Below, one piece after another: positions 5,995 through 25,031 of a stretch of 64,000 bases of DNA. Numbering within the stretch: position 1 is the stretch's first letter; each line of letters starts with the position of its first letter. This DNA is from an uncultured Pseudomonadales bacterium. GTDB taxonomy: Bacteria; Patescibacteriota; Microgenomatia; UBA1400; UBA12028. The position numbers were made by a program, and so were the translations under genes. The stretch lies in the NCBI GenBank assembly GCA_964635905.1, contig CAZWPK010000004.1:25012-89011 (forward strand), read 5' to 3'. Below the pieces are notes generated by a model. It had not been told where the DNA came from, made no database searches, and saw only the letters and a program-made list of their open reading frames with translations.

Positions 5995-7077
5995 TTACGT
6001 GTCCGTTGCGTAGAGAGGTCCGATTTCCTCAAGAAGACTGGGGATGAGTGCTTGTGCTAGCGTATTTCCAATGAGCACATGAGCTCGCTCTTTTGGGACA
6101 TTCCACACTACGAATAGATGTAACCAATACAACATTATGTTTGAAATCTGAATCCTTTTCTCTGCGTCTTTTGAGACCTCAGCAGGTAGAGTTTTGATCA
6201 TTTTTTCACGTTGATAACGAATGCGTGCAATTTGTATGGATGGCAACTGATTCGAATGATAAATAAAGTATCTGGTTTCTTGTTCAAGCAGCTCTGTAAG
6301 CGAAGCAATGGCTTGCGCATTACCCATTTTTGAGACGATTGCTTTCAACTGTTCTTGCTTTTCACTCAAATTATCAGCGCGAATTGAATAGTTCAAATCA
6401 AGACCAATTTCCTTCATCATAAGATGAAAAAGGTCAATACTACGAACCGATCCCATGGTTGAGATTGTTGCACGTTGTCTTTTAGTAATTTCTTGAATCA
6501 CGGGATTGGGAACAAAGGCAACATGGTGGCTGTTGACTCCTGGAAGTCTCATGACTCTGGGGACTATCGTCTCGCCACGATCTTCATTCTTACGTTGTAA
6601 ATTGACAAACTCGACAAGAATGAGGTGTGAGGTGTTTGGAGGGTATTGTCTACTAAGAAATTGCTGTACTTGTGCAACCATCAGGTCTGACGTTGCCCAG
6701 TCTTCCTTGGTTTTGAATTCTGAATCTTTCTTTTTGAGTATTAATTCTTGTAGTGCATGTGTGCGATCGTAATAGACATAATCGATGTGAAGATTAATTC
6801 CATACATGCTCAAGATTTGTCGGGCAGCCACAGCAAGTGCAGTGGTCCAGGTTGTTTTCCCAGAACCTGGTGGTCCAAAAACTGTCACAACAGTTTTTTC
6901 GTTGTGAGCGATATCACGAATTAACTCAATTCCGATTGAATGCCCATTCGAATCTTGAAAGGCTTCCAAATTGGTCGTACTTGCAGCATGACGAACCGAG
7001 GAGTTACTGCTCGTTCGTTCCGCAAACTCTCGGAGAAGTTGCTTACTCTTTGGCAGCTCGAAATCTGGAAAACTCAT
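5995..7077 (-). CDS. P-loop NTPase / small-molecule kinase-like protein (AAA_33/zeta-toxin-like fold)
   Basis: Walker A 'FGPPGSGKTT', Walker B-like 'HLILVEF'; start ATG immediately abuts the stop of the upstream histidine kinase. Confidence 0.5.
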   Translation of the reverse strand: MSFPDFELPKSKQLLREFAERTSSNSSVRHAASTTNLEAFQDSNGHSIGIELIRDIAHNEKTVVTVFGPPGSGKTTWTTALAVAARQILSMYGINLHIDYVYYDRTHALQELILKKKDSEFKTKEDWATSDLMVAQVQQFLSRQYPPNTSHLILVEFVNLQRKNEDRGETIVPRVMRLPGVNSHHVAFVPNPVIQEITKRQRATISTMGSVRSIDLFHLMMKEIGLDLNYSIRADNLSEKQEQLKAIVSKMGNAQAIASLTELLEQETRYFIYHSNQLPSIQIARIRYQREKMIKTLPAEVSKDAEKRIQISNIMLYWLHLFVVWNVPKERAHVLIGNTLAQALIPSLLEEIGPLYATDT

Positions 7078-8238
7078 TTAAAGTTGATGAATTGGCAGAG
7101 TTACCGTTACAGTGGTTCCTACACCGACGGTTGAATCAATGGCGATCGTTCCGTGGTGTGCCTGCACAATTTTGTTGCTAATAAATAATCCTAAACCTAA
7201 ACCTTCTTTTGTATTTTCTTTCCCTTTATAAAATTCCTCAAACAGATGGGTTAAATCAGACGATTCAATTCCCTTGCCCTGATCTATCACATGAAAAACA
7301 ATGGAGTCTTTCCCATCTTCAATTTTCAAGAGCACCGTTTTCTTATCATTTGTAAATTTTGCCGCATTATTGAGTAGATTAATAAAGACTTGAACCAACT
7401 TGTCACGATCTGCAACGAGATGCCGGTTGGGATTTAAGATCAGGTTGCTGACTTCTAGCGTCTGGGTAGGATACGACATCTGGAAATCATTGAGAACTAT
7501 CGTTACTAAATCAGTCACCAGCACATTCTTAAAGGTGTAATTCATTTTCCCAGAACGAATTTGGTTGATGTGCAGTAACTCGTTGATGAGGCGACTCATG
7601 CGCTTTGAAGACAATAACAGCGAATTGATCCAGACTGGGTTTGGGACGGTATTTTTCTCCACACATTTTTTCACGAGTTCCACGTAGGCAAGAATTGCAG
7701 TTAGCGGGGTTTTGAGCTCATGACTTGCCATTGAAACGAATAAGTCACGCGTGGAGACGGCTTCCTTTAAATCTGAAAGCAGTGAGATATTCCGTAACTT
7801 TAAACTTGCTAGTGAGCCGAATAACTGCAATGTTTGCATTCTCTTGGCAGTGATTGGTTTGGAGTACTTTGAATCAAGGGCAATCACACCGATCGCATAA
7901 TTTTCATAGGAGAGGGGAATAAACACAATCCGTTTCGTTTGCGACTTCCCGTACACAGGATGAATCTTTTTCATTTTGGAAACGGGCACGACTACGGCTT
8001 TTTTTGTCTTAAACGACTGGTACGTGTACCCTTCCATTCGAGGAACAATTTGCAATTCCTTTGGAACAGTAGAATAGACACGCACAAGTTTGTCGTGCTT
8101 CATCAGGAAGATACTTCCATACATCGCATCTGCCAGACGTTGGGCCTCTTGTACGATGGCTGAATACGTATCATCAGCCGTCAAGGTTCCCATGAGCCGC
8201 AGGGTGGATTTGTACACTGCTGTTATGGATGTATTCAT
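7078..8238 (-). CDS. Cytoplasmic sensor histidine kinase with N-terminal GAF-like domain
   Basis: H-box 'ASHELKTPLTAILAYVEL', N-box 'FINLLNNAAKFT', G1 'DQGKGI', G2 'GLGLGLFISNKIV'; no TM segments; ~160 aa N-terminal GAF-like region. Confidence 0.8.
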   Translation of the reverse strand: MNTSITAVYKSTLRLMGTLTADDTYSAIVQEAQRLADAMYGSIFLMKHDKLVRVYSTVPKELQIVPRMEGYTYQSFKTKKAVVVPVSKMKKIHPVYGKSQTKRIVFIPLSYENYAIGVIALDSKYSKPITAKRMQTLQLFGSLASLKLRNISLLSDLKEAVSTRDLFVSMASHELKTPLTAILAYVELVKKCVEKNTVPNPVWINSLLLSSKRMSRLINELLHINQIRSGKMNYTFKNVLVTDLVTIVLNDFQMSYPTQTLEVSNLILNPNRHLVADRDKLVQVFINLLNNAAKFTNDKKTVLLKIEDGKDSIVFHVIDQGKGIESSDLTHLFEEFYKGKENTKEGLGLGLFISNKIVQAHHGTIAIDSTVGVGTTVTVTLPIHQL

Positions 8239-8421
8239 TAATGGAGAACTAGTATATTACAACTATTGATTGTATCATTCTTGAGAAGAACCAGATAGCG
8301 TGACTCTCAAAACTGAGACCAATGTAAGAGAATTTTGTCAGCTGAACGGCTCGTTTATTACCACAGAGATTCACAGGCGTTACACTATAGGTCATCACCA
8401 AGTGGTACGGAGAACCTATCT

Positions 8422-8637
8422 ATGGGAAAACCTTTTGAAACATTGGGAAGAATTGCAGAAGAACTTGCAAAGAAACTGGGTGTTGCAACCAAGTCAGATA
8501 CCCTTGCTCCGTTATCCAGAGAAGAATTAGAACGACAAAAGGTGAAGGTGCTGTCGGAGTTTAATGCTGCAGAGAATGCCTATATGTTCATTCACTTTGC
8601 AGATATTGTGAACTTGCGTGGAGGTGCATATGACTGA
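8422..8637 (+). CDS. Small hypothetical protein
   Basis: ORF with a GGAG-type RBS before ATG 8422; no recognisable motif. Confidence 0.2.
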   Translation: MGKPFETLGRIAEELAKKLGVATKSDTLAPLSREELERQKVKVLSEFNAAENAYMFIHFADIVNLRGGAYD

Positions 8638-8670
8638 AACCCTCAGCTTGCAGCGTACGTTAAAGGAGCC

Positions 8671-8859
8671 ATGGCAGAGGATGTATTTAACATGATTCCG
8701 GAAAGTGTAGTAACAATCACTATCAATGGAACTACCTATCATCGATCACGATCGGTTGCAGATCAGCCTACTGCAAAGCTATGGGATAGGGAGGATCTTA
8801 TTACGTACTTCAGGGCTCAATTCGGAAGTAACTGGAGAGAACCGGCGGGGCGAAGGTAA
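8671..8859 (+). CDS. Small hypothetical protein
   Basis: 62 aa ORF with strong RBS (AAAGGAG); no recognisable motif. Confidence 0.2.
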   Translation: MAEDVFNMIPESVVTITINGTTYHRSRSVADQPTAKLWDREDLITYFRAQFGSNWREPAGRR

Positions 8860-9730: not shown

Positions 9731-9805
9731 TGGAGCGGGATAGGGGAATCGAACCCCCCTCTCATCCTTGGGAAGGATGCATACTACCGATGTACTAATC
9801 CCGCA
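9731..9805 (-). tRNA. tRNA-Gly (anticodon CCC)
   Basis: Reverse complement GCGGGAT...ATCCCGC-T-CCA; anticodon loop UUCCCAA; GGTTCGATTCC T-arm; CCA encoded. Confidence 0.85.
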
Positions 9806-9886: not shown

Positions 9887-10690
9887 CTATTTCCCTGGCA
9901 TAGTTAGCACTTGTCCGGGGACAATAATTCCTGGATTCTGTCCAATGGTTGACTTGTTTGCGTTATAAATTTCTACCCATTTGTATCCGTCATTGTACTG
10001 AGCTACGGCAATCTTCCAGAGTGAGTCTCCTTTAGCCACGGTATAACTTCCACCAGTGGTTTGTGTAGGTGCGGCAGATGAACTCGGTGTTGCACTCGGG
10101 GCTGGTGATGCCGTAGGAGTAACACTTGGAGTTGGACTGGCAGTTGGCGATGCGGTAGGCGTAGCAGTGGGACTTGCTGTAGCTACACTTGTTGGCGTGG
10201 GACTGGGTGTACCCGTCGGAGTCGAAGAAGCCACCGCAATCGTGGATCCTGTTGGACTAGGTACCGCACTTCCTGACGCAGTAACATCTGGAATGACCAA
10301 TTCTTGTCCTTGGGTGAGTGTGTACGGGGACTCTAAATTGTTTGCTTTTGCAATTTCGGTCCACTTGTATCCATCGCCATAGACTTCTTGCGCAATTGTC
10401 CACAATCCATCATTGGATTGCACGGTATAGGTGCGTGGAGACCCCATCAAGTCTTCTGTACTCGTGGTGTCACCAATTTCACTAATTTGAGGCGCTGTTT
10501 GTGATGACGATCGACGGATAAAGAAAAACAGGGCTGCAGCTAAGGCAATCACGACAAAGACCCCTAGTAGCGTCGAAAGCTCGGATTCATACCGACGAAT
10601 CAAGTCCATGAAGGATTGTTGAGTAGTGATTTCTTCTTGTTCCTCAACAACAGAAGAGGTGCGAACTTTTCGCTTTTTGGGAGCTGCCAT
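9887..10690 (-). CDS. LysM-domain peptidoglycan-binding protein (2 LysM repeats, Pro/Thr/Ser linker, N-terminal TM)
   Basis: Two LysM motifs ('YTVQSNDGLWTIAQ...YKWTEIAKAN', 'YTVAKGDSLWKIAV...YKWVEIYNAN'); TM 'LLGVFVVIALAAALFFFI'; TPTASP-type linker. Confidence 0.8.
   Translation of the reverse strand: MAAPKKRKVRTSSVVEEQEEITTQQSFMDLIRRYESELSTLLGVFVVIALAAALFFFIRRSSSQTAPQISEIGDTTSTEDLMGSPRTYTVQSNDGLWTIAQEVYGDGYKWTEIAKANNLESPYTLTQGQELVIPDVTASGSAVPSPTGSTIAVASSTPTGTPSPTPTSVATASPTATPTASPTASPTPSVTPTASPAPSATPSSSAAPTQTTGGSYTVAKGDSLWKIAVAQYNDGYKWVEIYNANKSTIGQNPGIIVPGQVLTMPGK
10056..10230. repeat. Imperfect tandem repeats encoding the (S/T)PT(A/P)-rich linker of the LysM protein
   Basis: Repeated gcgtagga/gtgggact-type units; protein shows TPSPTPTSVATASPTATPTASPTASPTPSVTPTASP. 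Confidence 0.5.
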
Positions 10691-10892
10691 ATGCCTTCCT
10701 TTTGCCCGACGTAACGGGCTAATCGTCTAAACTATTTGGATAATCTCTGGGGCAGCAGATTGTATTCAAAGTACGAAGTTTCTTAGGAAGTGTCAAGAGG
10801 GAATCGTGTTGATCTGCCTCTTGATACTCGCCACACACTTGAAAAAAAAGGATTCACTACTGATAATACCAACCAATAATGGGGGATTAACT

Positions 10893-11258
10893 ATGGCAGA
10901 ACGAATTAGAGTAATGGTGGTCAAGAGTAATGAATATGCAGCAATGCAAGCTGCACTATTTCAGGCACTTGGGGGCTCTTTGGGAATGGATTTTACGTCT
11001 ACAACTACCGAAGATGCAGCAATTCAAGCTTTCAAAAATGATCAAACTGATTTTATTGTTTCAGGATATCAAGACATCAATTGGCGAAAACTACTTCATG
11101 AAGTAGGTCCAGATAGAATGCTTGTCTACTCCGCCTATTCCGATGTTGAGACGAGATCAGCAGTGGAATCAGCCGGTGTTTCATACGTGGTGTTAAATGG
11201 GACGGAGGGAATGAGCGCCGTAATTTTGAACATTTTAGGCCGATTTCCACGGGAATAA
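10893..11258 (+). CDS. Aspartate-less receiver (pseudo-REC) domain protein, paralog 1
   Basis: ~121 aa; aligns by eye along its length with CheY-like receivers (beta1 'RVMVV', 'DFIVSG', 'MLVYSA', 'VSYVVL'); phospho-acceptor Asp and acidic pair replaced; RBS GGGGGA. Confidence 0.5.
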   Translation: MAERIRVMVVKSNEYAAMQAALFQALGGSLGMDFTSTTTEDAAIQAFKNDQTDFIVSGYQDINWRKLLHEVGPDRMLVYSAYSDVETRSAVESAGVSYVVLNGTEGMSAVILNILGRFPRE

Positions 11259-11295
11259 GTGTTAGGTTAATCGTTCTGGTGCAACGTGTGCGTCA

Positions 11296-11679
11296 TTACT
11301 CTCCACCAATGATCTGAATGTAGTTACCATCAAGATCCGCGAAGGTGGCGAAATACTTCTCAAATGTAAATGCCTTAAACGGAGCTGCAATCACTTCAAC
11401 TTCTTTGCTTTTAAGATACTCGAATGCCTCACTGACTGAAGCGACATTAAGATTAAACATATGCCGTGCAGGATCCATATTCTTTCCGTGAACTTGACTA
11501 TGTTGCCCGATCCACAGCCATGTACCACCCGGTTCAATTTCAAAGAGAACTCCCGTATCTTGAGGATGATCCTGCTCTTCGATCACCTTGAATCCGAACA
11601 CGGATTGATACCAATCCGCAAGTTTGCGGAAGTCCTCGGACCAGATTAAGACCGTAGATAGTTTTTCAAATCGGATCAT
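11296..11679 (-). CDS. VOC family protein (glyoxalase/bleomycin-resistance/FosB-like fold)
   Basis: ~127 aa, beta-alpha-beta-beta-beta pattern 'FEKLSTVLIWSEDFRKLADWYQSVFGFKV...DLDGNYIQI'; start overlaps the GNAT stop (ATGA at 11676-11679). Confidence 0.6.
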   Translation of the reverse strand: MIRFEKLSTVLIWSEDFRKLADWYQSVFGFKVIEEQDHPQDTGVLFEIEPGGTWLWIGQHSQVHGKNMDPARHMFNLNVASVSEAFEYLKSKEVEVIAAPFKAFTFEKYFATFADLDGNYIQIIGGE

Positions 11680-12113
11680 AATAATGAGTCCTCCTTTAAC
11701 TCTTTCCAAAAACACGTGTAGTTGTGCTCACTAGTGACAAATCCGCGTTTGGGATAAAAATGTTGCAACATGGCATTCTCTGCATCCGCAAACAAACATG
11801 TCTCAATTGCACCCTGTTCTCGGGCATGCTGTTCGGCTGTTGCGATCATTTTCGAAGCCAGTCCTTGATTGCGACGTTGTGGTGCCACCGCCAAACGAAA
11901 GTGAAAGACCACTTTTGATCCATAGTTAATGGAGAAAATAGAAGAGACGACAGTTAAACCTTCAACGCCTACTAAGATAGCCGTGGGATTTGCGGCGACC
12001 ATGCTTTCAAGATTTTCTGGTGATTCCCAAGTATCCGCATACAAATGGACCTCTTGTAACAGACGCTTTAGAGAGTCGTAATCGCTGGTTTGATACGGAC
12101 GAATGGTTACCAT
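11676..12113 (-). CDS. GNAT family N-acetyltransferase
   Basis: 'VAPQRRNQGLASKMIATAEQHAREQG' acetyl-CoA-binding motif A; overlaps the upstream LmbE-like gene by 7 nt. Confidence 0.75.
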   Translation of the reverse strand: MVTIRPYQTSDYDSLKRLLQEVHLYADTWESPENLESMVAANPTAILVGVEGLTVVSSIFSINYGSKVVFHFRLAVAPQRRNQGLASKMIATAEQHAREQGAIETCLFADAENAMLQHFYPKRGFVTSEHNYTCFWKELKEDSLL

Positions 12114-12859
12114 TTCAGATGAATGTAATGAAATTTTTCTAAAAAGGTATTTTCAAACTTAAATGAATTCAAGATATCCTCAACGCCATCTGCATCGAAC
12201 TGACTTTTGTGCTCTGCCAAGGCACGCCGTTTTACATCTTGAAGCTGGGTACAATCAAAATCGAAATTACAGTTACGCTCATCTGTAAGGAGAAGATCAT
12301 AGACGCTGTGCTCCGTGACTCCCTGCGTGTAATGATCTGTGAAAAAGGATCGGTCGCGTGAAAAGGGATAGACGGCATCAATTGCAGCTTCTCCTACTTT
12401 GCGATGGTCACGATGTTGTACAAAATATCCTTGCTTGTTATAGGTGGGCAAATATTGAAGTGATGGTTCATGCGTACACACCATATCGACTTTGAATTTG
12501 CGAATGTAAAAAGAAATCTCACCGATTAACGCCAAGTTACTTTCCACCGCACCATCGGCGTGTCCGAGACAAACAATGTGATCGTTCGGAACCCCAACTA
12601 CTCCAAGGGCTGCTTTTTCCTCAGCTAGACGAATGGCAGCAAGCTCCGTTTCAGAAATCGTATTCTCTCTACTTCCGCGTGCCCCGTTGGTGACTAAGAG
12701 GACATAAACGTCTTTTTTGTCGATTACCAACTGATGCATGAGAGATGCAAAAAAGACGATTGAATCATCGGGGTGGGCAGTGACCACCAGAATTTTTTGT
12801 TTGTTTTCAAAGATTTGAGCGTAGGTATACATGAGTGGAGTATAGCAAAGGGATGGTGA
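12107..12859 (-). CDS. LmbE/PIG-L family N-acetylglucosaminyl deacetylase
   Basis: 'KILVVTAHPDDSIVFFASL' (HPDD[ES]) and downstream 'HRDH' zinc-binding motifs; start set at 'MYTYAQIF...' because the longer ORF-track extension overlaps paralog 2. Confidence 0.7.
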   Translation of the reverse strand, partial: SPSLCYTPLMYTYAQIFENKQKILVVTAHPDDSIVFFASLMHQLVIDKKDVYVLLVTNGARGSRENTISETELAAIRLAEEKAALGVVGVPNDHIVCLGHADGAVESNLALIGEISFYIRKFKVDMVCTHEPSLQYLPTYNKQGYFVQHRDHRKVGEAAIDAVYPFSRDRSFFTDHYTQGVTEHSVYDLLLTDERNCNFDFDCTQLQDVKRRALAEHKSQFDADGVEDILNSFKFENTFLEKFHYIHLKW

Positions 12860-13001
12860 TCTTACAAAGTGTTGTGATCGTTGAAATGGGTTCACTGGTT
12901 CGTGTGAAGCTCTGAGCACACGCTCTAGATTAAATGAAATGGTATTGCTTGTTAACAATTGGTTTGCCAGGATCCACCACAGATATATTCTAGGAGACAC
13001 T

Positions 13002-13361
13002 ATGGCAGAAAAAAGACGTATAGGTGTTCTAAAGCGGGGGCGATTGGGGCATGATCTAGCGAGTGCATTAAATGGCGAGGATCCACAGTTGCAATTTATT
13101 GCACTGCCGGATGAACAGTTTGCTGTGGATGCTTTAAACAAGGGGTATGCTTCACTTATTGCCTCGGGAGTTGTTGGTATTGCGTGGGAAGATGTGTACC
13201 GCCAAGTTGGAATAGACCGTTTTATTGCGTACTCGACAGAAGTGACTGACGAAGAACTCGATATCATGAAGAAAGCTGGAATTTCGTTTGTTCCACAAGC
13301 ATTTCGAGAAAGCATAGAAAATCTGCTTGTTGTTATTCGCAGTAAAGTATCAAGAGAGTAG
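13002..13361 (+). CDS. Aspartate-less receiver (pseudo-REC) domain protein, paralog 2
   Basis: ~120 aa; shared motifs with paralogs 1 and 3 ('LIASGVVGIAWEDV', 'DRFIAYS', 'AGISFV', C-terminal '...SRE'); RBS AGGAGA. Confidence 0.5.
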   Translation: MAEKRRIGVLKRGRLGHDLASALNGEDPQLQFIALPDEQFAVDALNKGYASLIASGVVGIAWEDVYRQVGIDRFIAYSTEVTDEELDIMKKAGISFVPQAFRESIENLLVVIRSKVSRE

Positions 13362-13427
13362 TAAAAACTAGAGAGTTATTTTGGCCATTGTGTAAGTAGA
13401 TCGTGAAGTTCATAAAAAGGAGTAAAT

Positions 13428-13796
13428 ATGTCAGAAGTTGTGAACGTGGTAATGTTAAAAAAAGGTGGTATCGCTCAACAGTTAGCAAAAGCTTTCAATG
13501 ATTTTGATCCACAGATTGTATTTTCAGGTACGGACTCTGAAGAGATTGCAGCAAAGACAGTCCTTGATGGCACTGCGCATCTGATTGTTTCCGGACTAGT
13601 CGGAGTTGATTGGGAATACGTACTCAAAACGGTGGGTGACGAGAGACTAATAGTCTATGCTCCAGTCAATTTCCCGCAAGATCGGATTGCACGAAGTCAA
13701 GTCAATAACGCTGGTGCAACTTTTGTAGAAATGCGCATCACCGAAGGAGCAGCGCCATTACTACAGGCTATTATTAAAAAATTTCCACGCGACTAA
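13428..13796 (+). CDS. Aspartate-less receiver (pseudo-REC) domain protein, paralog 3
   Basis: ~122 aa; 'HLIVSGLVGVDWEYVLKTV' aligns with CheY '[21 protein letters not shown]', with G in place of D57; 'LIVYAP' (T87->Y); C-terminal '...FPRD'. Confidence 0.5.
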   Translation: MSEVVNVVMLKKGGIAQQLAKAFNDFDPQIVFSGTDSEEIAAKTVLDGTAHLIVSGLVGVDWEYVLKTVGDERLIVYAPVNFPQDRIARSQVNNAGATFVEMRITEGAAPLLQAIIKKFPRD

Positions 13797-13837: not shown

Positions 13838-13870
13838 AAAAAGCACATAGATACTATGTGCTTTTTTATT
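13838..13870 (+). terminator. Rho-independent terminator / IS200 left-end stem-loop
   Basis: Perfect hairpin aagcacatag-atac-tatgtgctt followed by TTTTTTATT. Confidence 0.6.
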
Positions 13871-13972
13871 GCTTTCCATGCAGAAAACCGCGCAGGACAT
13901 TCCATTGGAGCGAAGCGAGGAATGCGCGGATGAATGAGCGAAAGCATGGCGGAGCCATGCTAAGCTGTTGCC

Positions 13973-14404
13973 ATGCGAATTCGGCAGCTCAATCATTCTG
14001 TATATCAGGTGCAATATCACATTGTGTGGGGGACCAAGTACCGACGGAAAATACTCAAGGAGTATGTGAAGACAGCATTGATCAAAAGTCTTCACAAAGT
14101 ACAGAGGAAGTTTCCAACTTGGTATTTCCACCGCATCAATACCGATCAGGACCATGTGCACCTGATCATTGAGATACCTCCCAAAGATAGCCTTGCGTTT
14201 TGTGTGCAACAACTCAAAAGTAGCACCAGTGCTGACCTGCAGAAACAGTTTCCCTTCATTGCACGTATTTTTCCAGATGGAAGTATGTGGTCTGTCGGCT
14301 ACTTTGTCAGCACGATCGGACTCAATGAAGAACAAATTCAAAAATATGTGGACAAGCAAGGCCAAAAAGATAAGAGTATGGATGTAACCGCCGAATATGC
14401 ATGA
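13973..14404 (+). CDS. tnpA: IS200/IS605 family transposase TnpA (HUH Y1 transposase)
   Basis: 'YHIVWGTKYRRKIL', HUH motif 'HVHLIIEIPP', catalytic Tyr region 'SVGYFVSTIG'; ~140 aa. Confidence 0.85.
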   Translation: MRIRQLNHSVYQVQYHIVWGTKYRRKILKEYVKTALIKSLHKVQRKFPTWYFHRINTDQDHVHLIIEIPPKDSLAFCVQQLKSSTSADLQKQFPFIARIFPDGSMWSVGYFVSTIGLNEEQIQKYVDKQGQKDKSMDVTAEYA

Positions 14405-14482: not shown

Positions 14483-14896
14483 TTATTTACCAGTGGATTT
14501 AACGGTCAGTTTCTTTGGTTGTGCTTTTGCAGCTTTGGTAAACCTGATATGTACTAACCCGTGAGCCAGCTCTGTTTCGGGCTCAATGGTAATGTCAATG
14601 TCTCCAGGAACTGCAAGTTGGTAGGAGAAGTATTTTTGAGACCGTCGAAAGAACTTTTTTCCTTCTTTTTCTTCCTGTTTTGCTTCGGCTACAATCCTTA
14701 GCATGCCCTTCTCAAAAGTAATATCGATATCTTTGTCTTGAATTCCTGGGACTGCAGCTTCGACGTAGACATGTTTATCATCTTCAGCAACCGATAATCC
14801 ACTTGGAGTGTTGGTCATCATTCCCCAGTCTTCATCATCCATCATGGATGGAAGGGAAGGAAATGAGAAGAAAGAACGTGGTAATAAATAGGACAT
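14483..14896 (-). CDS. Hsp20/alpha-crystallin family small heat-shock protein
   Basis: 'DDKHVYVEAAVPGIQDKDIDITFEKGMLRI...AHGLVHIRFTK' ACD signature; RBS GGAGGA before ATG 14896. Confidence 0.85.
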   Translation of the reverse strand: MSYLLPRSFFSFPSLPSMMDDEDWGMMTNTPSGLSVAEDDKHVYVEAAVPGIQDKDIDITFEKGMLRIVAEAKQEEKEGKKFFRRSQKYFSYQLAVPGDIDITIEPETELAHGLVHIRFTKAAKAQPKKLTVKSTGK

Positions 14897-15262
14897 AGTC
14901 CTCCTTTCCCCAATAGGGAATACTGTATGTAATTTCTGTATGCTAGATACAGAGAGCACAGTTGCGATAAAGGTGGGTAATTAACCCGGTGAGTGTTTAC
15001 CCCAACTGCCTTCTCTATATCTAACGCATCAACTCAATCTGTATTGTGTTTTTACTATCGAATTAGCAATAAAATATCATGACTGCTAAACGGTGTCAAG
15101 CAGTCAAACACGCCGAGTGCCAGCTCTGTTGGAAAGATGTATCCTTGTGCGGGACAAACGCATTGAGTAAACGCACACAATCCAAGCAATTCACGCTTGG
15201 ATAAACGTAAGTACGCATGACTACTGATCAGCAGAGCTTATAGAAGATGCCCTATGGAGAGG

Positions 15263-24953: not shown

Positions 24954-25031
24954 ATGAGTGTTGCCTAGTTTTGCCAGACAAAGTACTATTTTATACCATC
25001 AATCCGCCTTTGCGGCGGATTGAAATCATGT

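Follow-up and report, generated by a model that had tools for sequence, protein, structure and literature searches.

The three genes and their locus

The subject of this work is a group of three short genes in a stretch of 64,000 nucleotides of DNA (positions 25,012 to 89,011 of contig CAZWPK010000004.1, assembly GCA_964635905.1; here called the window), which comes from a Woesebacteria-like genome. An earlier reading of the sequence, referred to here as the original prediction, had proposed that these genes encode stand-alone proteins, related to one another, with the fold of a response regulator receiver (REC) domain but without its phospho-acceptor aspartate. All three open reading frames (ORFs) are present on the forward strand where they had been placed: paralog 1 (P1) at 10893–11258, paralog 2 (P2) at 13002–13361 and paralog 3 (P3) at 13428–13796, encoding proteins of 121, 119 and 122 residues respectively. 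P1 is annotated here as a probable stand-alone pseudo-receiver of the K/SG/W family. P2 is divergent from an operon of LmbE, GNAT and VOC genes, and P3 lies 66 nucleotides downstream of P2. Each gene was expected to have its own ribosome binding site, and a purine-rich, Shine-Dalgarno-like motif is indeed found 6–13 nucleotides 5' of every start: GGGGGA for the gene at 10893, AGGAGA for that at 13002 and AGGAG for that at 13428.

The three proteins align with one another over their full length, as had been claimed, with BLASTP E values of 6e-17 (P1/P3), 9e-19 (P2/P3) and 2e-11 (P1/P2) and identities of 26–34%. The three-way alignment has 21 invariant columns. The sequence blocks originally picked out by eye are real: AG-x-S/T-aromatic-V and the [FV][PS]R[ED] at the C-terminus need no correction, whereas the VG following SG is found in P2 and P3 only (P1 has QD) and the DR is ER in P3. 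Searched with a hidden Markov model (HMM) of the family, the window yields these three copies and no others. Orthologs are intact at syntenic positions in other assemblies, with a ratio of non-synonymous to synonymous divergence (dN/dS) below 1. P1, P2 and P3 are thus, beyond reasonable doubt, real genes and true paralogs.

A scan for consensus signals found a terminator-like hairpin (a stem of 13 bp with a T run after it) 3' of P3, at 13838–13866 on the forward strand, as a pattern match alone. Because P2 and P3 are only 66 nucleotides apart and the one terminator-like hairpin comes after P3, they are probably co-transcribed. The same scan gives a promoter-like site 5' of P1, at 10839–10867 on the forward strand (TTGAAA-17-GATAAT, 10/12 matches), which is treated as a candidate only, since such sites are no more frequent in the region than shuffled sequence predicts. 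The intergenic region in which it lies (10691–10892) is 97.5% identical in a closely related assembly (L002, 89–97% nucleotide identity).

Sequence searches

The proteins are not recognised by any of the standard sequence models. At E<=10, Pfam gives no relevant match for P1–P3 or for any of the 13 members of the family described below, and this includes PF00072 (Response_reg), the domain that had been expected for each paralog and whose Pfam gathering threshold none of them reaches. The six minor pseudo-receiver families in Pfam (PF06490, PF21155, PF21194, PF21695, PF21714 and PF22368) were equally silent, with 0/13 members matched at E<=10. NCBIfam, PHROGs and PADLOC gave no meaningful match for P1–P3, nor did PHROGs for the 13 members, and searches of PDB sequences with profiles built from 3 and from 13 sequences returned chance-level matches only. 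Since PF00072 matches no member, P1–P3 fall outside the computational definition of a receiver that is normally used; aspartate-less receivers (ALRs), or pseudo-receivers, are likewise defined in part by being identified as receivers by domain-recognition software, and here no Pfam REC match is found.

The original prediction included an alignment of P3 along its length with CheY. BLASTP of P3 against E. coli CheY gives no alignment at E<=100, so the alignment by eye was a good guess that is not statistically supported, and it missed a deletion of five residues that is described below. The relationship emerges only in profile-profile comparison and in predicted structure.

Predicted fold and relationship to REC domains

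AlphaFold2 was run for P3, with an alignment of 5 sequences, and for P1, with an alignment of 13. The predicted local distance difference test (pLDDT) and predicted template modelling (pTM) scores are 88.7 and 0.84 for P3, and 93.3 and 0.86 for P1. Both models consist of five strand-helix units and give a confident (βα)5 fold of the CheY type, which is the fold required of a REC domain. When the models were compared with solved structures using Foldseek, the nearest were exclusively REC domains, and FrzS, HP1043 and KaiA-N are among the structural matches. Lower in the list there are flavodoxin-like folds that are not REC, namely the MMUT B12-binding domain and a flavodiiron flavodoxin-like domain.

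Profile-profile comparison was done using hhalign, with the 13-member family alignment against an alignment of 8 canonical RECs. This gave a probability of 88.6% and a P value of 2.6e-6, with 112 columns aligned in register. In a repeat, the in-register alignment scored 37.0 (probability 84%), compared with 15.7 (0.9%) for the best off-register alternative, 11.4 (0.2%) for a reversed profile, and no more than 12.9 (<=0.3%) for 20 column-shuffled profiles. Because the controls score so much lower, the match must reflect more than generic β-α periodicity.

The receiver fold that had been proposed is therefore borne out by the confident models, the REC-only nearest structures and the in-register profile alignment. 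The original prediction had named two observations that would tell against it, a profile match to a non-REC family and a conserved aspartate at the acceptor position after proper alignment; no profile gave the former, and no such aspartate surfaced. We consider it very probable that P1–P3 are aspartate-less proteins with a receiver fold, which are incompetent for phosphorylation.

Active-site residues and pattern of conservation

The positions of the catalytic residues of CheY were mapped onto the family using the hhalign comparison together with an alignment of 13–14 family members; residue numbers given here are those of P3. The acidic pair that forms the Mg2+ site (CheY D12/D13) is replaced by K11-K12 in P3, by K-S in P1 and by K-R in P2, with K11 present in 85% of members. 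The phospho-acceptor D57 falls in a gap, next to the invariant G56. The Thr/Ser at the end of β4 (CheY T87) becomes Y77, this position being Tyr, Phe or Leu across the family. The lysine following β5 (CheY K109) is M102 in P3, L in P1 and Q in P2, and is not conserved. All five catalytic positions (5/5) are thus replaced, so that the phospho-acceptor Asp, the acidic pair and the Thr/Ser and Lys by which a REC domain is defined are all missing; the combination of the fold with the absence of these five residues is what defines a pseudo-receiver. The substitutions that had been proposed, namely Asp to Gly, loss of the acidic pair, Thr to Tyr and loss of the Lys, are upheld by the mapping and by the family alignment, in which a Gly is invariant at the end of β3 in 13–14 members.

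The end of β3 has the sequence I-V-[SAT]-G, and G56 stands beside a gap of five residues opposite CheY D57–P61. This shortens the γ-turn loop, which comes after the Asp and usually cradles the phosphoryl group. This deletion in the β3-α3 loop is new, and goes beyond what had been noted earlier.

Across the family F32, G56, W62 and G70 are invariant (W62 being 92% and G56 100% by the per-position figures), and K11, A41 and L111 are nearly so; S78 is found in 77% of members. None of the invariant residues is acidic. The family signature can be written as K...[ST]G-x-x-G-[IV]-x-W...G...[YF][SA]. Conservation is highest in β3, followed by β4 and the short α4-β5 link, while α4 and the β5-α5 loop are among the least conserved elements. 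Single conserved residues are found in the β3-α3 loop and along α3, with the invariant Gly just after α3.

Several of the landmarks of REC domains that are not catalytic have been kept. These include the Gly at D+8 (G59, equivalent to CheY G65), the small residue at T+1 (A78 or Ser, equivalent to CheY A88), the switch aromatic at K-3 (F99, equivalent to CheY Y106, and Tyr or Phe in most members) and an E-x-A-[IL] motif in α2. The retention of these landmarks together with the loss of the catalytic residues argues that the family arose from a receiver and then lost its phosphotransfer chemistry entirely.

Distribution and history of the family

The family is very rare and separate from classified families. 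When 1.84 billion representative proteins were scanned exhaustively with HMMER (E<=1e-3), 11 clusters were found, all of them stand-alone, single-domain proteins of 118–126 residues. Word-indexed searches of 5.8 billion clusters added only P0018, which is a second and highly diverged copy from a distant 175-kb contig (L003), and P0003, a 140-residue call of a P2 ortholog. The only named source of a family member is Candidatus Woesebacteria (MBP9700505.1, GCA_018060955.1). A search of GTDB representatives for patterns typical of the P2 clade matched only the known Woesebacteria contig, and the one match that these patterns gave in JGI metagenomes was a false positive, a 3-hydroxyacyl-CoA dehydrogenase.

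The original prediction suggested that three diverged copies within 3 kb had arisen by local duplication. The identity matrix does not agree with this, because the three paralogs in the window are only 27–34% identical to each other and are therefore as distant from one another as they are from members in other organisms. P2 groups with P0004 (92% identity), P0005 from Candidatus Woesebacteria (77%) and P0006 (61%), P3 groups loosely with P0007, P0008 and P0009 (32–37%), and P1 groups with P0010 (34%). Since each paralog groups with its own relatives, the triplication would appear to be old and not a recent local expansion, a conclusion that we hold with moderate confidence because the grouping is that of a neighbour-joining distance tree without bootstrap.

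In L003 two members, P0013 and P0018, are found in tandem at 8001–8762, 24 nucleotides apart and only 16% identical, so that a multi-copy tandem arrangement recurs. RecG and a coiled-coil protein of 119 residues are encoded upstream of this pair. P0018 has Tyr-Gly at the end of β3 and does not have the family Trp. A different arrangement is seen in two separate organisms, at L002 7850–9036 for the P3 ortholog and at L004 1655–2901 for the P1-like P0010: after the family member come one or two genes on the minus strand, each encoding about 80 residues, and then LemA. The LemA-linked location may be the ancestral site of the family.

Genomic neighbourhood

The neighbouring genes that had been named were all confirmed using Pfam and ARAGORN. 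Between P1 and P2, on the reverse strand, are a VOC/glyoxalase (11296–11679), a GNAT (11676–12113) and a PIG-L/LmbE (12107–12832), the last of these being 241 residues long with its start at 12832, as it is in L002 and in a contig from a Woesebacteria metagenome-assembled genome (MAG; L001). A longer LmbE ORF of 402 residues (12107–13315, reverse strand) is an artefactual extension, which arises because the frame meets no stop across most of P2, to which it is antisense. Upstream of P1 there is a tRNA-Gly (9731–9804), and further upstream on the reverse strand a kinase with GAF, HisKA and HATPase_c domains (7078–8238), abutting a P-loop protein of 360 residues (5995–7077, reverse strand) that has weak matches to AAA_22 and KTI12. 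Downstream of P3 are an IS200-type Y1 transposase (13973–14404) and Hsp20 (14483–14899). A LysM protein at 9887–10690 (reverse strand) has a long linker rich in Pro, Thr, Ser and Ala, and its gene is the fastest-diverging of the block, with 72% nucleotide identity to L002 as against 91–97% for its neighbours.

The order of P1, the opposite-strand VOC-GNAT-LmbE genes, P2 and P3 is the same in L002. In L001 the GNAT and LmbE genes are still divergent from P2, and altogether the operon is kept beside P2 in L001, L002 and L005. It is absent from the loci of the more distant members: L003, L004, L011 and L012 have no LmbE, GNAT or VOC neighbour, and the neighbours of distant members are RecG and the coiled-coil protein, NUDIX, LemA, and proteins of no assigned family. 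The connection of P1–P3 to this 'detox-like' operon, which the original prediction had suggested should be surveyed in related genomes, is therefore one of local synteny and not a conserved association.

P1–P3 do not need the kinase as a partner, because it has been deleted from L002 together with the P-loop gene while the three family genes stay intact there and are 96–97% identical. Remnants of the deleted genes, with about 80% identity, are found at L002 1993–2365 (window 7880–8035 and 8227–8439). A search with a REC HMM found no canonical receiver in the window or in any of the loci fetched, and no kinase was seen near the family members of L003, L004, L011 and L012.

The block had also been described as an accessory island. 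Its GC content of 0.42–0.44 is within the range of the surrounding sequence, and the region from the tRNA-Gly to the terminator of P3 is syntenic in L002 and partly so in the Woesebacteria MAG, so this description is not supported. Alignable synteny with L002 stops at 13872, just 3' of the hairpin and about 100 nucleotides before the IS200 gene, which therefore sits at a rearrangement breakpoint; beyond it L002, unlike the window, carries an 82-residue gene, LemA, an M48 peptidase and GatCAB. In L001 (7260–7929, compared with window 13362–13430) the intergenic sequence following P2 can be aligned almost to the start codon of P3, after which there is a different, GNAT-like gene. This gene encodes at least 199 residues, runs off the end of the contig, and is a candidate for gene replacement at a fixed boundary. 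The slot of P1 is occupied in L001 by a protein of 1214 residues with no Pfam match.

Low synonymous divergence

Between the window and L002, P1, P2 and P3 have a synonymous divergence (dS) of 0.05–0.08 and a non-synonymous divergence (dN) of 0.016–0.037. The corresponding values for the neighbouring transketolase, VOC, GNAT and LmbE genes are 0.21–0.37 and 0.011–0.042, and those for a sixth neighbour, a protein of 172 residues, are 0.29 and 0.135. The synonymous sites of P1–P3 are thus about five-fold more conserved than those of the neighbours, with dN similar to that of most of them (Fisher's test on synonymous differences, p about 7e-20). Against the more distant L001, the dS of P2 is 0.34, compared with 1.3 for LysM, about 2 for LmbE, and a value that could not be computed for GNAT, all of these being at or near saturation; amino acid divergence is equal, with dN of 0.12 for P2 and 0.13 for LmbE. 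The GC content at third codon positions is 0.33–0.34 in P1–P3, as against 0.41–0.48 in the neighbours.

The conservation extends to the intergenic regions flanking P2, which are more conserved than the neighbouring coding sequence. For the 170 nucleotides between LmbE and P2 the figure is 82%, compared with 76% for LmbE and 61% for GNAT. Within it, the window and the distant Woesebacteria contig have an identity of about 94% over the approximately 70 nucleotides immediately 5' of P2 (12930–13001). This exceeds both flanking coding regions and suggests a conserved promoter, operator or leader that P2 and the divergent LmbE operon have in common. A direct repeat, TGAAATGG, is found at 12882 and at 12935. 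A search of the intergenic regions for notable repeats or operators found none.

Several possible causes of the low dS were considered and set aside. The predicted mRNA structure is unexceptional (fold z-scores of 0.10, -0.27 and -0.40). The codon adaptation index relative to ribosomal, elongation factor and GroEL genes is 0.59–0.66, which is average or low. Nor is there support for a conserved antisense gene, since the 402-residue frame that runs antisense to P2 is interrupted in both L001 and L002, and opposite P1 and P3 the window contains no ORF that reaches 60 residues. Rfam finds the tRNA-Gly alone, and thus no known RNA family over the three genes. Open frames antisense to family genes do occur in L002 (6697–7152) and L012 (2333–2773); these are not continuous with LmbE and not conserved in L001. 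Because the reduction in dS is of similar size at two evolutionary distances, it looks more like the result of constant constraint, or of continuing gene-specific gene flow, than of a single recombination event.

Proposed role

On the basis of these observations, we hypothesise that P1–P3 are binding or regulatory modules with a receiver fold that no longer respond to phosphorylation, and as a whole this seems to us, on balance, a probable explanation. The proteins would descend from the REC domain, or at least share its fold, with the phosphorylation apparatus removed. Since all of the catalytic residues are replaced, they should be unable to act as phospho-acceptors, which would place them functionally with the pseudo-receivers, and the absence of every such residue points to small binding or regulatory subunits that probably act independently of phosphorylation. 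Function probably resides in the remodelled top face together with β3-α3-β4, the best-conserved part of the family, comprising K11, S55-G56, G59, W62, G70 and Y77-S78. A rebuilt binding surface here is favoured because the positions of the former active site have not decayed and are occupied by conserved residues that are not acidic (Lys, Ser-Gly and Tyr-Ser). What binds to such a surface would be another protein or else a small anionic ligand, while the variable α4-β5-α5 face may carry contacts to partners that are specific to each paralog. The three copies would then be ancient and non-redundant, and a hetero-oligomer or other hetero-complex of P2 and P3 is plausible, given their probable co-transcription. 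This particular binding mechanism is proposed tentatively, as a possible account more than a probable one.

Some of the evidence weighs against the explanation as a whole. No REC or minor pseudo-receiver model matches any member even at E<=10, and no PDB sequence does so, with the result that homology rests on one profile-profile comparison, of 84–89% probability, and on structures that are predicted and not experimental. The REC profile in that comparison was built from 8 sequences entered by hand. That the conserved residues cluster in space is deduced from the geometry of REC domains. Genomic context gives no functional handle, in that an all-against-all BLASTP comparison of the ORFs within 6 kb of the family genes at six independent loci found no recurring partner. 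Finally, convergence within the flavodoxin-like class of folds could still, strictly speaking, account for the resemblance to REC. The proteins would in that case be unrelated flavodoxin-like (βα)5 proteins that bind a cofactor or nucleotide, as might be suspected from the lack of any HMM-to-sequence match to REC and from the non-REC flavodoxin-like folds lower in the Foldseek list; given the profile alignment and its controls, we regard this as highly improbable.

Among the more specific roles, that of a ligand sensor deserves some consideration, although we think it unlikely. Here the rebuilt pocket, made up of the Lys, the Gly, the short Gly-rich loop and the Trp at the start of α3, would bind a small anion, for example phosphate itself, a metabolite carrying a phosphate group or a second messenger of the nucleotide type, and so switch the interactions of the protein. 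The high conservation of K11, G56, W62 and S78 shows that the former active-site positions have not decayed, and ligand binding by pseudo-receivers is documented for ShkA, which binds cyclic di-GMP (PMC12632262, PMC7010744). However, W62 lies on the predicted buried face of α3, as judged from helical periodicity and from its hhalign match to CheY L68, and may be purely structural, and no ligand-related genes recur near family members at the six loci. A related and rather improbable proposal is that the family is a signalling module restricted to the Woesebacteria or to the candidate phyla radiation (CPR), in which the receiver was rebuilt with the same Lys, Gly, short loop and Trp to sense an anionic ligand or to dock a CPR-specific partner. 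The low dS would then represent gene-specific recombination sweeps across lineages, or an added function at the nucleotide level.

The remaining proposals depend on the neighbouring genes. P1–P3 might be dedicated regulators or subunits of the PIG-L/LmbE-GNAT-VOC pathway, with P2 binding the enzymes or controlling the divergent promoter indirectly. P2 is divergent from LmbE and GNAT in three genomes, which include the Woesebacteria MAG in which the synonymous sites of LmbE are saturated, and the intergenic region between LmbE and P2 is unusually conserved. But the proteins have no DNA-binding domain, the members in L003, L004, L011 and L012 have no such neighbour, and synteny among fairly close relatives is weak evidence for a functional link, so that this too we would call improbable. 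It could also be supposed that P1–P3 are decoys, or mimics of a receiver that cannot be phosphorylated, which bind and modulate the GAF histidine kinase at 7078–8238. Its HisKA and HATPase domains are intact, no canonical REC is detected in the window with a REC HMM, and pseudo-receivers that bind HisKA are known, for example in ShkA (PMC12632262). The loss of the kinase and of the downstream P-loop gene from L002, which keeps all three family genes, and the absence of a kinase near other members, make it very improbable indeed.

Comparison with known systems

Pseudo-receivers are common, and how they work is poorly understood. Genes that are retained in very small, reduced genomes tend to matter. 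The family described here is in effect a new small family of pseudo-receivers, and would add to the catalogue of modules derived from REC. We see this as a well-supported gain in annotation, from hypothetical protein to stand-alone aspartate-less receiver-fold protein, and not as a mechanistic discovery. Identification of a partner or ligand would reveal what a bare receiver scaffold can be reused for in Patescibacteria. The family is a reasonable choice for structural or biochemical studies of the pseudo-receivers of this group. Pseudo-receivers make up several percent of the roughly 2 million receivers that have been catalogued (PMC12632262), and for this reason specialists are unlikely to be surprised by a further family.

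The difference from canonical REC domains (PF00072, such as CheY, Spo0F and DivK) is clear: five catalytic residues have been replaced, the β3-α3 loop is five residues shorter, and the α4-β5-α5 region, which in canonical REC is the functional output face, is here the least conserved. Flavodoxin and B12-binding domains have the same three-layer α/β/α (βα)5 architecture, and a few of them are found low in the Foldseek list; the T/S-x-T-G-x-T loop that follows β1 and binds flavin mononucleotide is absent from the family, and a flavodoxin is not its best structural match.

The closest comparison is with the ALRs and pseudo-receivers, including FrzS, HP1043, ChxR, RitR, KaiA and CikA. They have in common with the family a REC fold without the phospho-acceptor Asp, which implies an action independent of phosphorylation. 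Pseudo-receivers commonly act by constitutive dimerisation or by binding a ligand, and often shift functional importance to the β3-α3 loop and α3, a shift also seen in the conservation pattern of this family (PMC12632262). A search of PDB sequences with the 13-sequence HMM detected no sequence relationship to known proteins of this type. Most of the characterised ALRs are fused to an output domain or form part of a larger protein, and most are still recognised by PF00072, whereas the members of this family are stand-alone, unrecognised, and have Gly at the Asp site. About 11% of ALRs have Gly at this position, and as of 2015 none of these had been characterised (PMC4395418). The minor pseudo-receiver families in Pfam (PF06490, from FleQ, and PF21155, PF21194, PF21695, PF21714 and PF22368) are also small, with REC topology and with HMMs that do not contain the catalytic residues (PMC12632262). 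The present family is separate from these, with no HMM match to them and with a signature motif of its own. It thus stands as an extreme case among receivers, with no catalytic residue, a deleted loop, no output domain and no match to any model, and yet it is conserved and present in multiple copies in reduced genomes.

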